Source of the DNA: Squalus acanthias
Lineage: Eukaryota
Direction of reading: 5' to 3'
DNA length: 64,000 nt
NCBI GenBank assembly: GCA_030390025.1
Contig: CM059436.1
Coordinates: forward strand, 57,226,001-57,290,000
This document shows, piece after piece, positions 11,137 through 59,229 of this stretch. Both the position numbers and the translations under genes were made by a program. Below the pieces are notes generated by a model. That model was given only the letters and a program-made list of their open reading frames with translations. It was not told where the DNA came from and made no database searches. Positions within the stretch are counted from its first letter, which is position 1. Each line of letters starts with the position of its first letter.

Positions 11137-11217
11137 AAAAGATCCCAAGACACTATTGAAGAGCAAAAGTGAGAAGTCGCACAACACCAGGTTATAGTCC
11201 AACAGCTTTATTTGAAA

Positions 11218-11254
11218 TCACAAGCTTTCGGAGCGCTGCTCCTTCGTCAGGTGA
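11218..11254 (-). ncRNA. Identical minimal hammerhead motif on the opposite strand (left hairpin arm)
   Basis: Exact reverse complement of 11440-11476. Confidence 0.75.
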
Positions 11255-11439
11255 AGTGAAGAAATACATATGGGCACAGCATATATAGACAGAGAACACT
11301 GCCAGACACCATCCACACCTTTGATTGCCGTGATTGTCTCTCTGCCGAGGTGTGATAAAGGGCAGTTAGAAAGATTAACTGTAGTCGTCTGGTAGTATTC
11401 TCTGACTATATATGCTGTGCCCATATGTATTTCTTCACT

Positions 11440-11476
11440 TCACCTGACGAAGGAGCAGCGCTCCGAAAGCTTGTGA
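11440..11476 (+). ncRNA. Minimal (dimer-type) hammerhead ribozyme motif
   Basis: UCAC-CUGACGA-A-GGAGC(AGC)GCUCC-GAAA-GC-UU-GUGA: catalytic boxes CUGANGA and GAAA, 5-bp stem II, stem I UCAC/GUGA, loopless palindromic stem III AGCU, predicted cleavage triplet CUU. Confidence 0.75.
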
Positions 11477-12534
11477 TTTCAAATAAAGCTGTTGGACTAT
11501 AACCTGGTGTTGTGCGACTTCTCACTTTTGTCCACCCCAGTCCAATACCGGCATCTCCACATCATGGCTACTATTGAAGAGCAGATAGGTCTGTCACTGC
11601 CCTGAGCATATTTATCCCTCAACCAACACCACCAAAGGCAGAGTAGCTGGTCATTTAGTCAATTTGCTGTGGAATATTGCCGCCTGCAGGTTGGCTGCTG
11701 TGGTGGCCTTTATAATAGTGACCCTCACATTTCAAAATGTAATTTGCTTGTTGTGAAATCAAGGCGTTATGCCGAGAGTCTCTTGCAGAGCCATTGGATC
11801 CGCGAAGGAGGTAGTTTCAATGGGACAGCTACAGACCTAACAAAACGTGGACGTTCCCGGTCACTGGAGCATGATTGGTTGGTTGATTTACACTGGGAGA
11901 GGCGTCAATTGTGTGAGACCCAGTCATTGAAAGTCACAACACCACAGTAACATAAAAGCATGTAAAGTGCACTCTACTCAGGAAGCAAGGCAATACAAAT
12001 AAGACGACAAATGAACTGGATCATGAGGAACCAGAACAGGAGAAATATGCGGGCAGTTAAAAAGAGCTTTGGGGCAGCGAGATCTCTGGATATTCCAATT
12101 CATCACACGCTCTATGGCTTTCATTTACAGTCTAAATTATGGTGGCAAGAGTTATCCCTGCCATCTCATGAAGGGAAGGAAGCAGTGCTGTATTTAACAG
12201 GATTACAAGGAGTGGGGTATAGAAAAAGTGATATCAGCTGAAATTTGAAGTTATTTGGAGTAAAACTCCAAAATTAAGTGATGTTATATAACAAATAACC
12301 AAACTTTTTTTTTAAATGTTGCTTTAAATCCAGTTATCATAATTTCTCAAAATAACCTTAACATCACCTTCCTTTGTTGATGAAAAACACCAATTATACA
12401 GCAGCCCTCAGCTTAACATCCCTCACCGCCTGGCATAACACTGTCCACCAACACCTCCTGTTGATTCACACACCCACTCCTCAATGTAGTCACCCATCCT
12501 GACGAGCTTTCAATTCCTTGTTGACACATGACTT

Positions 12535-33835: not shown

Positions 33836-36724
33836 AACAGAATAATTATTGGACCAAATAATAAAGTAGCCTTGACAGAAGACATATCCAAATCAGAACC
33901 AACTGTCCACAGGCCTGGCTCAATCTTCCGGTGATGTATTCACAATATTGTGTAGAACCCAGTAACTACTGTGACAAATGGTGCACCTGGTATCCATTTG
34001 CACTTGAACGATAGAGACACTGTACAGATATTACCAAATACCAGACAAACTGCACAGGATGTGGGCACTTGCCCCAGCAGATTGTTGGAGGGGATACATG
34101 GCTGTATTTTGCGAGCTTGTCAAAACCTGGTGACATATCGTGCTGATGATTTACAGGTCACGTAGCAGGTTACTGGTGTCCATTTGATCAGGTTACTGGG
34201 GCTGGCAATGCTTTCAAATACAAGGTCATTCACGAAAAGCCTAGTTCTTGCCAGACATTGCATCCTGCTGTCATGGAGAAGACCCAACACCCCTGCCCCC
34301 CATGCCTGACTCAGTGTAATTTGGGAGATAGATCAGTTTTGAAGTGAGCTGCCTTTGTCAAGCTCTTTTTAAGGCTGGGTCAGATACGGTTTGCTCATCT
34401 GGTGAATTCAGCCCCTCCCCCGCACCCCCAAAGACAGCTTCCCCCAAACCGAAGGGGAAGATTTCATAAATAAAAACAAAGCAGAAATAAAATATTTCAC
34501 ATATTACAGCATCCTTAGAACCGCAATTTGTCAAATGCTTCTTTTGTAACATATAATGATAGAAAAACAGAAAGTGCTGGTGATATATAGCAGATCCCTC
34601 AGCATTTGTAAAGAGAAAAGGTTGGCTACCATTTTGGGCACAAACCCTATAGACGAAGGGACTGTGTCCAAATGTTAACCAGTCTTTTCTCTTTACTCCA
34701 ACTCTACTTACCAAACTGTGGTACTTTTTGCTATTCAACTGTAAATAATAATATAAAATCAAAGTATATGAAAATAAGCACATAAGGTATAACTGAATTT
34801 CATCTGCACAGCCTGGTTTAATTTTGCCCTGCCCTTTAATCCCACTTCACCTGAAGACTGCTCTTGGTCTTGACTCCCAATGTAATACCATGGGAGATCG
34901 ACTAGTATTATTCTTGTAAACATATCTTTTAGATCCCTTATTTTAAAGGACATACCCGGAAGGAAGTTAAAATTGGTAAAATAATCCGTGAATTCAGAGA
35001 ACATTCATCAACTGCTTAAGCTTTCCTCTTGAATTTATTATGTCATCTGAACCCCTTATCGAGTTAGTGTGTTCCAACTCCCTTACAGGTATGCATTATT
35101 GTGTGTGTGGGATTGGCACTGCCAAGTGGATCTGATGTGAAGTGTTTGCTTTTAATCATACTGCAGAATCAAAACAACATTTTTTTTTAAATCACTGTGT
35201 CAATGTCATCGCAATTATCATTGCACAGTTTATTTAACCGGCTTTTCATTTGAGTTCTGAAGCAGCCAATGAAAACATTAAGAACGAGGACTATTAATCA
35301 GGAGACCAAAGGACCATTCATTAAAGCATGGATTAACCAAATATTGTTTTCAGGTCAATGATATGCAGCCTAGTCTTGTACATCTGCAGAGTAGGCATTG
35401 CTCTCATATCTCAATGCCCAGGCAGTGCAGAAATAGAGTTTGCGCACCTTTTCCAAACCTAAATACCAGGCCCACAGCTGTCAAATGCAAGGTGTGGTTC
35501 ACAACCGTCTTCCCCCTCCCTCCTTTATGGCAATTCAACCGCTGAGAAATCAAAAGAAAATTGACTAACAACATAAATATTTAATAATAAAGGGGAGGGG
35601 TGGGGAATGTTCATTTTCTTTTGGATATAGATTTTTGATTAGGAAACATGGTTTTTTTGGTAAGATTGAAGTATTTTTGGCTATCGAAAGGAATAAAGAT
35701 TTCATAACGTGCACTTTCTGGAGCTGGGTCTTAAATATAGAGCATGACAGATATTGGACCAGAACACAATGGATGCTTCCATTTCACTTTGTTAGTGATT
35801 TTCCAATACATGACTCTTTCCCCTTCCATGTTTTTGCTGCAGAAAGCCCTAAGTAATAGCTTGTGGTATTATTTATCGAATGTATAGCAAGACTAGAAAC
35901 AGACGTATGAAACCCAGAGAAAGGATTGTACAGGAATATAAAACGGCAGATGGATGGCTTGCAAGCCTTTACTGCTGGACATAGGAAATGCTCAAACAAA
36001 TGGGTAGCTTTGTAGTTTTATTTCAACTTCCTTTTTGTGGTTTGTTTTGTTCGCTCCTCCACAGAAAAATCCTTAGCAGGGCACAGAAAAGAAGACGGTT
36101 ACATCGGTACTGCCACACCTATGGTTTTAAATGAGGCACCCGGTCCCTGTGCTGGTACAATTGCTGATTCTGAACAGTGCCCTGCAGTGACCGTAGAGCA
36201 GGGATTATTAGCATATGGACCCTTGAGCAAACTCTGGTGAAGAGAAAACACCAATCACCACACCACAAAAGTTACACAACTTTCAGAAAGGCCAGATCTG
36301 GAGCTTTGTGGCTCGGCAGCATTTCTAACCTCAGCAACACCACCACAACTGCACTCTGCAATTCCTCAATCAGTCCCAACAAACCACCAGCATCCTACAG
36401 TTGTGGCTGCTTTGACTTGAGATGGACTTTTCTAAAAATTACAGTGTGGTGCCAGATGTCATAAACAGTAGCTCTGCTACAGCACTTAATGTTATTTTCA
36501 AACACGGCTCTTTTGTTTAATCTTCTTAGAAAATAAATTTCATTTCAAAAATAAACTTAATTTTGCTTTTTTACTTCAGAAGTGAAACAAAGCTATCCAG
36601 GGGACTGAACCCAGAGGTGCACAAGATGCCCTCTCTCCCAAATCAGCATATGGATAAAATAGCTGTGGTCATATGCAAATCTAAGTAGATAACAAAATGG
36701 GCTTTGCACAACAGAAGAGAAACC

Positions 36725-42302: not shown

Positions 42303-43024
42303 GGCCCGGATTTTCCGGGGCCTATGACCGTGTACGTGGTGTGTACGCAGCCATAGGTGTCCTTCAAGTTCCGGGATTCTGCATGTACGAAAACCCGGAA
42401 CTTGCGATCTGTCAAGTTTCAGCTTGCGGAACTGCGGGCTATTTGCCCAACTACTGCCCAGCGAATGCCCATGAAACTCTTACGCCTGGTAAAAGCAGGC
42501 ATAGGGCCTTCATTTACCAGTGTAAGAATTTAAATAAATACTAAAATATTTTTTTTTTAATTAATTATTTAAACATTAAAAACTTTAAAATTAGTTATAG
42601 GTTATTTTTAGCCCCTTTAAAACGTTTAAATTTATTTTTCAAAAAATTAAATTTTTGTTTTAAATGTTTAATTTAATTGTATTTGAATTAATTTTGAACG
42701 TCATGATTTATTTTTATTTTTAACTGGTGTGTAATTGTGTTTTTTTAGGTGATTTCTATTCTGCTCATGGGGATTCCGTACGTAAATGGAATCCCCATAA
42801 GCATGAATGGGAATCCCCTTAATCATTGGTTGGCCTGACCCACGTGGTCCCAGGGGCGCTTGTGAACTGCAGGCGCCCCTGGCATACGTGGGCCTTTACG
42901 CAGGCGTACGCGTAGCGGCTCAGGAGCGCGAAGCTACGAACCTCCCGGATCAGGTAGGTTCGTACTTTTCTTGCGGTTCGGAGGCATTCGCCCACGGGAA
43001 GCCTCTGACCACAAATGCAGGCCC
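42303..43024. mobile_element. Harbinger-like MITE family B, copy 1
   Basis: Imperfect TIRs GGCCCGGATTTT / AAATGCAGGCCC, 3-bp ATT on both sides, GC-rich ends with an AT-rich core. Collinear with 49631-50372. Confidence 0.8.
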
Positions 43025-43529
43025 ATTAATTTGATACACTGACCCATGCACATATTTTTATTTTTAGACCTCTGGGGATCGTGAGCCTTTTTATTTTTCA
43101 ACCACCCCTTCTGAAAACTGAAAAGGCAATTCAACCCACATCCCTCAGGAAGGAGGCGGAATTTTGAACCCTAGCCACTCAAGTCAAAACCTGTGCTTCT
43201 GCTCCCATTCTCCCTCACCATTATTACCCCTCCCTTTCCCTTTCTGCACTATGATGACCACTTCTGCAGTATTTCCAGGAATTGCAGGCAAGAGGATGCT
43301 CACTTGCATTGACAACACTATAGGGACAAATCTTCCTTTAATTGCGCTTGTGAGTAGAGGATTACCATGGCGCAGCCTAAAGAGGAAAATCAGACAGGCT
43401 CCGTTACAGGCGTGCAATCCTCCCCACCCAATTTTCCCCTCGGTGCCCTGCAGCCAGGCAATCCTTTAGCCCCCAAGCACAAGAGGAGAAAAAGCTGCCC
43501 CAACGCTCTTACCGAGAAAAATTCAAAAT

Positions 43530-49630: not shown

Positions 49631-50372
49631 GGGCCATAACTTACAGCCCGTACGAGGTGTGTACGCGCCCGTAGGGGCCGCGCAAGTTCCGGGTTTAGGC
49701 ATGCGAAGCGTGTGTGCTAAAACCCGGAACTTGCGATCTGTCAAGAATCTTCTTGACAGATCATCCACATCCCCAGGAAAAGGGCATCCACGAGCGGAAA
49801 GTTGGGCTATTTGCCCAGCGAATGCCCATGAATTTCTTACGCCTGGTAAAAGCAGGCATAACCTGCTTTCACCAGCGTAAGATTTTTAAAGAACAGAAAA
49901 GTAATTTTTTTCCAATAATTTATACATTTAAAAACCTGTGAAATAAGGTACGTTTATTTTTAGCCCCTTTAAAATATGTAAATTTATTTTTCAAAAAATT
50001 AAATTTTTGTTTTAAATATTTAATTAAATGCCATTTTGATTCATTTTAAATATGTGATTTTTTTTTTATTTGAAGTGTACGTGTATTTTTGGGGGTATTC
50101 CCATTCATACTTACGGGGTTTCCATACATACGGAATCCCGATAAGTATGAATGGGGATTCCCCTTCTTTCATTGGTTGGGCCGGCCCACGTGCTCCCAGG
50201 GTGCTTGCGAACCGCGTGCGCCCCTGGGATACGTGGGCCTCTACGCAGGCCTACGCATAGAGGCCCAGGAATGCAAGTGTCCGAACCTCCGGGACCATCA
50301 AGTAAGTTCGTAGATTTTTTGCTGGTCAGAGGCGTCCGCCCACGGGAAGCCTCCGACTGCAAATTCAGGGCC
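49631..50372. mobile_element. Harbinger-like MITE family B, copy 2
   Basis: TIRs GGGCCATAACTTACAG / CTGCAAATTCAGGGCC and ATT TSD. Shares blocks with 42303 (AAAACCCGGAACTTGCGATCTGTCAAG; GCCCAGCGAATGCCCATGAA; CCCACGGGAAGCCTC). Confidence 0.82.
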
Positions 50373-51465
50373 ATTAACATTATAAAAACAGTTAACACTA
50401 TAAATAAGAAATGAAAATGGCATATACTTTAATAAAATCCCTCTCCTTTCTGCACTTTGGTACGCATTTTCAAACCCCCACCAGCATACATTCTTCATGG
50501 ACAGCCTCTTACAGCTTTGGTTACTTGTCCTTTGGCTGTTTTCCCACACTCTCTGATGTATGATTACTTGACAAAAGAATGAAACAAAAACCTGAAACAC
50601 AATAAATTAATTACAGATTTCTGTCCATCCAGCAACTTAACCCAGGGGAGTGCAGCAGGGCTTCTGCTGGTTTAAATTTAAAAGAAAACCTAATATTTCA
50701 TTGAATAACCAGAAACAGAAAGAAAAACTACTGTACTTATTGGCTGTAACGTTAGCAATTAGTTTCCTGTTGCTTTGAAAAATAAAATCTCCAGTTATCA
50801 AACAGTACACCAGGAAGGAGCCTAAAAATAAAAATCCAAAACTTTAATCCCCTTTAACTCAGTACTTTAGGTTAAAAAAAAATCTAAATAAATTGTACAA
50901 ATAGCAAGTTTTACAATTAGGTAACAAATATTGTTCCACTACTCTATCTTACTCTCCCTTAAAGGGAAGGATCAAGTTTTGTTCTGCCGATTTTGTTGCA
51001 CCTTGAATAATTCCCCTCTTTGCATTTTTATACCAATTGAGCTTCCCCCTGCCACTGCGCAGAGTCCAACTGTCTCTCTGGAAATGTTCTCAGCACAAAC
51101 CAATTTCCTCACTCATGGTCTTGTACCCCTCTCCATGTAGGAGGCATTCTACAGATGTGCACACTCAGCCTTGCAAATACTGGAAGCGTATTGAAGTACC
51201 ACAACAAATATCCTTACAATGAGGTTAGAAACTTGCTACTAAACGGCTCCTATCTGTCCATCAGCACCTCTGTAATAGTGATTGACAGCAGCTGTAACAC
51301 CAGACAGAAATAAATTAAAACTTCAACTTACTGGAGGCTGACTAGATTAGTCCAGGATTGATTGTGAGACCCGCGAGAGATTTAAAGAAGCACTGTCTTC
51401 ATGAAGGCAAGCCATTTTATTTTTGTTTGTGGAGAAGAACTGTGTGACATCATCACCACAATAAA

Positions 51466-56832: not shown

Positions 56833-56901
56833 TAGCTTACAGTGAAGATGGAGGGAAGGAGGAAAGAGAAAAATCCCAGTGTTACCTCCCACATAAAAGG
56901 T

Positions 56902-57050
56902 AAAAATGAGAAGTCGCACATCACCAGGTTATAGTCCAACAGATTTATTTAAAATTATAATTTTAAATAAATCTGTTGGACTATAACCTGGTGTTGTGCG
57001 ACTTCTCATTTTTGTCCACCCCAGTCCAACGCCGGCATCTCCACATCCTG
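56902..57050 (+). mobile_element. Short PLE terminal-repeat insertion forming a loopless palindrome
   Basis: 12-bp TSD ACATAAAAGGTA at 56891-56902 and 57051-57062. 112-bp palindrome at 56902-57013 with one mismatch, followed by the same tail as the 11164 element (GTCCACCCCAGTCCAA..CCGGCATCTCCACATC). Confidence 0.85.
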
Positions 57051-57461
57051 ACATAAAAGGTATACACAGAACTCCATTTATTCAACAAGGGTTAGTTTAC
57101 AGAACTCAATGAGCTAAAAAGCAAACCATCGTTTGCCATCTGTGCTGCAGATTGTACATTTTCTACAAGGATCGAGAATGGATATTGCACACAAGGTTTA
57201 CAAATTGTGACAAAATGGATTTCTGGCTCCCTTACTGACAGCAACTAGTATTACAAAAACCACTGTCGTGGAGGGTATGCATTCCATTTCTCAAATTCCC
57301 CTTCTCCGAGAACAAGCAGCCTCACCGCACACTGGTGGGGAAGGGGGGAGGGCTGGGGGTCTCCATTAGTAATAGTCAGTGTTGTGATCAGTTTGCAGAG
57401 CACTCTGCATGGGAGGGACACTACAGTTCCCAGACATCAAGCACCTGAGAAACTGTAAGCA

Positions 57462-58140: not shown

Positions 58141-59229
58141 TGCAGCATTGCCTGAATTCACGGGTCTTAACCATAGATGGACGATCCTTCCCTCTCCATT
58201 ATGGATAGGATAGATTTGTGTAAGGAGGTGAGTGAGGGCAGAAAGAGAAAACACAAATTACTTTTTAAAATTTACTAATGAAATACAAATACTATTTTAT
58301 TCCATGTTTTCCCTTAGTTTCAGTCAGATTTGAACTGCAGGTCATTGTGTTCTATTTCACTGTATACAGGGAAATAACATACCCTGTATACAGTTTTTTT
58401 TTAATTATCTATTTTTATTGTACAGTGGGGGATCTTACCTGACAGTTTAGTCCTAAAGTGCAACAATATCCTCAAAGAAAAAATGGTGTAAATGAAGGAT
58501 AGCAATCTCCCTCTAGATGTATTACATCATAAGGCAAGTTGGACCATAATCACGAGTTGGATCACATCAAAAGACAAGGTTTGCTGCATGCTGGACATTA
58601 ACAGGAGGCAAAGAGACATTTAAATGAGGCTGTTTACACCAACTTGATGGCAACCCACTTAGTGAGGCAAATTTTAAACTGGCATTTGGAGGGAAGTAGT
58701 TTCACTCCACAAACGCTAAATGATGTTAATGACGCCTATTTAAATGGTGCAATTGGATTTGGAAGAGTTGCTATTTCTGAACAAAGCTCACTTTACAGCT
58801 CCAGTCGGAGCAGAAGCAGCTTGTGATTTCAACATTCACTCAAAAGCGGCTTTCTGTAGGGCTACAGAGCAGGGCAGCACCTCCGGTTTCATTCTCAGCC
58901 CTTCTCATATGGACACTAAGAAAATTCAAAAGTCACATTCAACTAACCAGAGCTCTCCCTAGACATAGATTGAATGTTAGTGATCCCATCCAAGGCAAAA
59001 ATAAAAAATACAATTGTAAGAAAGGCATGCTTAACACAATTCTCTGCATCTTTAGAGAAATGTGATCAGACATATATAAGGTGGACAGCAATACTGAGAA
59101 CAAGACAAAAACAGAGTGAAAGAGAAAGTATAAACTCATTAAAATATTGGCAGATCTCCCATGGCATACTCATAGTAAGTAGGACGATATGCTGTTTTGT
59201 AAGGAGAGGAGTGTTGTGTGCTACACGAT

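Follow-up and report, generated by a model that had tools for sequence, protein, structure and literature searches.

The fold-back element at positions 11152–11583 of the 64-kb stretch of shark DNA analysed here (the window) is very probably one severely 5′-truncated insertion of an EN+ Penelope-like element (PLE) of the Penelope/Poseidon or Neptune type. Its membership in the PLEs would rest on the architecture together with the ribozyme. A derivation from PLEs had been proposed in an earlier note on this DNA and is supported by the layout, the tail, the TSD and the pLTR hammerhead. The back-to-back position of its two ribozymes follows from the known PLE insertion layout. Most likely, the element is at most another example of a published PLE insertion type.

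Architecture of the element and of a second copy

The element (copy 1) lies between direct repeats at 11152–11165 and 11570–11583 on the + strand, the left and right TSDs, which are identical at 14 of 14 positions and permit no extension. The last two bases of the left TSD are in microhomology with the start of the inverted arm and can also be read as the beginning of that arm. The arms of the inverted repeat (11164–11307 and 11387–11530) are 144 nt long each and are separated by a spacer of 79 nt. The arms show three mismatches, at right-arm positions 11393, 11397 and 11405, which face left-arm positions 11301, 11297 and 11289, so that the outer 125 bp are perfect. The left arm is an inverted, 5′-truncated copy of the 3′ end of the element, i.e. 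of the pLTR without the tail (11166–11307, − strand), and the right arm is the part of the direct pLTR copy that the left arm mirrors (11387–11530, + strand). The spacer (11308–11386, + strand) would belong to the direct copy, as a section of it that lies further 5′, and it has no second occurrence within the 64-kb window. A tail of 39 nt (11531–11569, + strand), A/C-rich (67%) and present on one side only, stands between the right arm and the right TSD. Copy 1 has neither a poly(A) nor a microsatellite end, and there is no tandem array. Every measurement of the TSD, the arms, the spacer and the tail in the earlier note was reproduced. Its view of the element as young also stands, given the low divergence (14/14 TSD bases and 125/125 bases of the outer arms identical).

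The element was also described as lacking an ORF, and this is correct. All three frames from the ribozyme run into a stop. Beyond the ribozyme, an ATG is first met at 11564–11566, in a context of A in position −3 and G in position +4, and the tail ends just past it. The A of this ATG is replaced by C in the second copy of the family described below. In the Anolis Poseidon element (PAc; Frangieh et al. 2024, PMC11167929), on the other hand, the ORF is reported to start within the ribozyme, whereas the first ATG of copy 1 comes at the tail end. The frames 11477–11602 and 11359–11499 were translated and compared among longer proteins only; none of the six candidates for the former and none of the four for the latter was a relative.

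When the window was searched with the element by BLASTN, a relative was detected at 56891–57062, which is absent from the earlier note. This copy 2 consists of a left TSD of 12 bp (56891–56902, + strand), whose final base is shared with the arm, an inverted arm of 56 nt without ribozyme (56902–56957, − strand), a direct arm that follows without a spacer (56958–57013) and runs on into the tail (together 56958–57050, + strand), and a right TSD (57051–57062, + strand). The outer breakpoint of its inverted arm equals that of copy 1 within 2 nt; allowing for the 1–2 nt of TSD microhomology, the inverted arms of both copies begin at one and the same element position. The tail is 36 nt long and ends 3 nt before that of copy 1. 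Both arms of copy 2 end just 3′ of the ribozyme position. Therefore, copy 2 carries no ribozyme. Common to the two copies are the outer breakpoint (equivalent to 11528–11530) and the tail end (equivalent to 11566–11569), whereas the arms (144 vs 56 nt), the spacer (79 vs 0 nt) and the TSD (14 vs 12 bp) differ. The G + C content of the TSD is 36% in copy 1 and 25% in copy 2, against roughly 40–44% across most of the window, which fits an AT-rich target preference only weakly.

The fixed outer ends and the variable inner ends suggest that the inversion was formed at each 5′-truncated insertion. The traits of EN+ PLEs that were found are a pLTR containing a minimal type I hammerhead, an inverted 5′-truncated copy in 2/2 copies, a one-sided tail (39 and 36 nt) of the 30–40-bp class and, as far as two copies can tell, a fixed 3′ end with variable 5′ truncation and variable TSD length. 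The earlier note had suggested a distinct non-autonomous retro-hairpin family, and this part of it was not sustained, since copy 2 differs in arm length and spacer and lacks the ribozyme. We regard it as very unlikely that PLE proteins retrotranspose transcripts of a non-autonomous fold-back family in the form of entire hairpins, in which the antisense arm controls the ribozyme. Such a family would agree with a compact, TSD-flanked and ORF-less unit bearing intact ribozymes; pLTRs are reported to suffice for mobilisation in trans (PMC3846280), and non-autonomous PLE derivatives have been described (PMC8557442; bioRxiv 10.64898/2026.07.22.740005). However, the only other copy in the window differs in its junction and lacks the motif, the ribozyme is predicted to be fully sequestered as soon as it is made on both strands, and anole PLE insertion in vitro was independent of ribozyme cleavage according to PMC11167929. 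Copy 2 could also have arisen from a longer hairpin that lost its centre by deletion.

Long inverted arms between TSDs would also be seen in a MITE or foldback DNA transposon whose terminal inverted repeats are long and which carries a hammerhead-like sequence by chance. This explanation is hardly credible, because a tail of 36–39 nt parts the right arm from the TSD in both copies, the TSD lengths differ (14 and 12), the arms are truncated on the inside and a match to the hammerhead descriptor by chance is rare.

The arms were also compared base by base. Over 54 aligned arm bases, the number of differences between arms was zero within copy 1, one within copy 2, and three and four between the copies. 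At 4 of the 56 shared arm positions, each copy has its own allele in both of its arms, as is expected if one template gave both arms. Each arm pair appears to derive from one template, or may have been homogenised later. A search for further copies in the window with nhmmer returned the four known arms and seven weak matches only. A stretch at 58791–58832 has weak similarity to the 3′ side of the ribozyme (best nhmmer E 0.076; 15-nt exact match); it has no intact core and is possibly a chance match. A candidate 9-bp RNA stem, 11504–11512/11543–11551, encloses the starting point of the inverted arm. Its pairing is kept at the two positions where copy 2 differs, through one-sided changes only and with n = 2 copies; there is no two-sided change, and the stem is not better than shuffles.

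Hammerhead motifs and predicted RNA folding

The published min-HHR descriptor (PMC4209133 Fig. S7) was run on the 64-kb window in our own implementation. Exactly two matches were obtained, 11440–11476 on the + strand and 11254–11218 on the − strand. The two motifs are identical minimal type I hammerheads, with a stem I of 4 bp, a stem II of 5 bp and a 3-nt loop. On the + strand, stem I is formed by 11440–11443/11473–11476 and stem II by 11452–11456/11460–11464; the core is at 11444–11450 and 11465–11468, the bulged A is at 11451 and the palindromic N15.2/N16.2 pair is G/C. The cut is predicted after U17 (11472) and is mirrored after 11222 on the − strand. The distance between the opposite-strand hammerheads is 194 nt. 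The motif fits the metazoan PLE min-HHR consensus, and the fit extends to the bulged base before G10.1 and the palindromic 15.2/16.2 pair. In 1000 dinucleotide-shuffled (block-shuffled) windows, the descriptor was matched 5 times in all and never with stems that long. A relaxed core scan of the window found solely the two known motifs. The descriptor matches and the intact core boxes and stems I and II uphold the claim of one minimal hammerhead per arm with a predicted cut after 11472.

The bare hammerhead core pattern was not enriched in the window (3 matches vs 6.46 expected). The stability of the 37-nt motif was within the range of shuffled sequences (z −1.14), and 27 of 200 shuffles fold equally well. 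A check with the hammerhead models of Rfam, proposed in the earlier note, was negative: none of these covariance models matched the element at gathering score or even at E ≤ 10. At gathering score, no Rfam model matched anywhere in the 64 kb. Plant miRNA-precursor models of Rfam that aligned to the long hairpin were far below their gathering scores and were rejected, as was one RybB match, which is due to chance. Such minimal hammerheads are missed by the Rfam models and are therefore under-annotated.

The earlier note had also proposed that the long hairpin locks the ribozyme after full transcription, and that a transcript of one arm could cleave. Since the arms stand head to head, read-through from either flank yields the antisense arm first. 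The pairing of stems I and II, as an equilibrium prediction, was 0.0 in the full element, and it was already 0.0 when the transcript reaches the 3′ end of the ribozyme, on both strands. Predicted energies are −77.8 kcal/mol for the duplex of the motif with its antisense and −10.0 kcal/mol for stems I and II of the motif itself. With the antisense made first and no stem predicted at the 3′ end, there would be no free period before locking. A lock/unlock switch is thus unlikely, the ribozyme being predicted to be locked on emergence. A flank transcript covering one arm is antisense and contains no ribozyme.

On the other hand, RNA that starts inside the element, and no other, is predicted to fold stems I and II, with probabilities of 0.69–0.99 (11289–11476). 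This prediction would suit a host or regulatory role, either as a self-cleaving RNA begun in the internal spacer or as a source of double-stranded RNA, and Drosophila Penelope pLTRs are reported to contain an internal promoter (PMC2377424). Such a role is nevertheless highly improbable. For the complete direct copy, the predicted probability of stem I falls to 0.0. The 300 window frames scanned contained no host gene, and the insertion seems to be recent, given how little the TSDs and the arms have diverged. In PMC4209133, moreover, single min-HHRs gave no detectable cleavage and dimers cleaved poorly. The self-duplex of the 4-nt palindrome is predicted at merely −2.5 kcal/mol. If copy 1 is a truncated PLE insertion, cleavage by the hammerhead in the parent element would be weak and would take place in a dimer or with the help of protein. 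At the locus of copy 1, the ribozyme is probably inert and read-through transcripts would simply form a long hairpin.

Search for a parent element and other sequences in the window

A PLE RT/GIY-YIG ORF was sought with Pfam cutoffs among the 300 longest of the 786 stop-to-stop frames of the window, and none was found in this set, which comprises all frames longer than the 486 shortest ones (40–59 aa). A missing parent ORF is expected in a pLTR-only copy. The sole frame of the 300 that reached a Pfam cutoff is a reverse transcriptase at 152–1402 on the + strand (417 codons, RVT_1 domain), which we take to be L2. Its best relative is from Callorhinchus milii with 52% identity, in keeping with a probably chondrichthyan host. 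Six of the 120 relatives listed are from this species, and most of the other named ones are from bony fish. The relatives carry names of the jockey/X-element type. This frame was rejected as the PLE partner: PF00078 is carried by all of the 120 listed relatives and PF14529 by two of them, no Penelope appears in the visible names among the relatives listed, and the frame is LINE-like. Fragments related to the 3′ part of this reverse transcriptase recur in the window, including inverted pairs at 29720–30786.

LINE fragments are common in the window, and this would allow copy 1 to be a LINE/SINE-type 5′ inversion produced through twin priming by the abundant LINE. Twin priming of LINEs inverts an upstream segment, whereas the inverted part of the element duplicates the 3′ end. 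In addition, the element shares no sequence with the LINE fragments of the window, and it terminates in neither poly(A) nor a microsatellite. This origin is extremely improbable, and the truncated PLE insertion remains the preferred reading.

Several other observations were made. In the search for the parent ORF, a full HMMER scan gave one match, P0001 (WP_459505218.1), a hypothetical protein of Erwinia amylovora, which was rejected as spurious. This protein of 492 aa is built of 68-aa tandem repeats; part of the repeat resembles, by eye, a translated sequencing-adapter end, so that the protein is probably an assembly artefact. The 22-nt arm motif had no match in GTDB genomes, as expected for a eukaryotic repeat. 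Another repeat family is present at 42455–43029 and 49812–50377. Its two members share 78% identity across some 580 bp; they contain a palindrome of 70–80 nt (42744–42822 and 50092–50163), and a tandem unit of 21 bp, rich in A/T, also belongs to the family. At 34608–34696 and 49735–49762 there are isolated, imperfect palindromes, about 90 and 28 nt long, respectively, neither of which has a hammerhead core. A minisatellite of about eight degenerate 40-bp units occupies 33528–33830.

Relation to known elements and formation of the inverted repeat

The opposite-strand ribozymes are not a novelty. Pairs of min-HHRs on opposite strands of truncated PLEs had already been reported in PMC4209133. In that paper (Cervera and de la Pena 2014), dual opposite-strand min-HHRs 100–700 bp apart are described as probably related to truncated PLEs, and the legend of Fig. 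S4A mentions a 5′-truncated PLE whose opposite strand bears a second min-HHR. Copy 1 resembles its examples, the Schistosoma Cercyon family and the Cotesia bracovirus PLE, in having two opposite-strand minimal type I hammerheads of the same consensus. Stem I of the lamprey Poseidon hammerhead in the same paper is identical, by eye, to that of copy 1. In contrast to that set, copy 1 has no ORF remnant, and no shark is included in the table or the alignment of the paper.

The layout also has close precedents. EN+ PLEs with an inverted 5′-truncated copy adjoining the 5′ end and a 30–40-bp tail at one end are described in PMC8557442. In Pen2a_Av (PMC3846280), the inverted pLTR is reported to be 37 bp shorter than the direct one, with a 31-bp tail and a 9-bp TSD. 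Copy 1 shares with Pen2a_Av, with the elements in Fig. 2 of PMC8557442 and with Penelope of D. virilis (PMC2377424) the order of TSD, tail-less inverted pLTR, and direct pLTR plus tail, and palindromes at inverted junctions are a further common feature. The ORF is retained in these examples, wholly or in part, whereas copy 1 is pLTR only, and the TSDs of 12–14 bp seen here compare with 8–10 bp in the rotifer. In PAc (PMC11167929), the hammerhead is likewise followed by an A/C-rich end about 120 nt on, and the tail lies between two start sites. Animal non-LTR retrozymes (PMC7229834; bioRxiv 10.64898/2026.07.22.740005) are also ORF-less, hammerhead-bearing and pLTR-related, and have been reported in one chondrichthyan too. 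They are direct tandem repeats with same-strand ribozymes, whereas copy 1 is an inverted pair and forms no tandem array. Direct tandem units with same-strand type I hammerheads were not found, and identity with a non-LTR retrozyme was rejected. A literature search on a shark PLE hammerhead family, in which most subscription journals were outside the scope, returned nothing relevant. The shark PLE family behind copy 1 may well be already catalogued, and Penelope is listed among the repeats of the whale shark genome in PMC8455134.

The insertion mechanism can be considered in the light of these systems. According to PMC11167929, the protein of anole Poseidon acts on AT-rich DNA, where both strands are nicked and then extended. 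Reverse transcription starts at two internal RNA sites flanking the tail, the choice of start site being without strand bias. The same work reports that the hammerhead cleaves only with the protein and is dispensable for insertion in vitro. By analogy, the PLE protein would make a staggered cut that leaves two 3′ ends. One 3′ end would prime cDNA at the tail end and the other at the 5′ edge of the tail, and both cDNAs would terminate early and then join head to head. The distances from core C3 to the two outer ends of the element are +84 to +86 and +122 to +125. The reverse transcription start reported for anole Poseidon is at about +116 to +123 from core C3, as counted by eye. An alternative route to the inversion, self-priming on the antisense template, is described in PMC3846280. 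The present data seem compatible with both dual priming and self-priming, and in either case the second ribozyme would be a by-product of the mirror copy.

The inner end of the left arm (11289–11307) deserves separate mention, since all three arm mismatches of copy 1 are within the inner 19 of 144 nt (P ~0.002, noticed post hoc). One of them forms a G-U pair on the + strand, another forms a U-G pair on the − strand, and the third is A-A. This segment may be a mutated mirror copy or a repeat belonging to the element itself. The inner mismatches could be mutations that arose later and escaped arm-to-arm conversion, or they could reflect a switch to a related template. As a further possibility, which we put forward tentatively and consider doubtful, PLE inversions arise when both target strands prime, one per reverse transcription start, and the antisense cDNA ends anneal at self-complementary stretches. 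In such a joining model, 11289–11307 may be the element's own imperfect inverted repeat to 11387–11405, and this would explain why the mismatches are confined to the inner 19 nt. Copy 2 would have joined at a short palindrome. Palindromes at inverted junctions are noted in PMC3846280. A literature search on dual priming with annealing, again with most subscription journals outside its scope, found no such model.

As it stands, the element matters little, since truncated PLE insertions of this kind are numerous in the genomes of non-mammalian vertebrates. Nevertheless, pLTR-only copies with clean TSDs present the outer breakpoints and the inner junction within a few hundred bases. They are good material for the study of how PLEs make their inverted repeats and tails. 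A young and abundant shark family would make the joining model testable from genome data alone.
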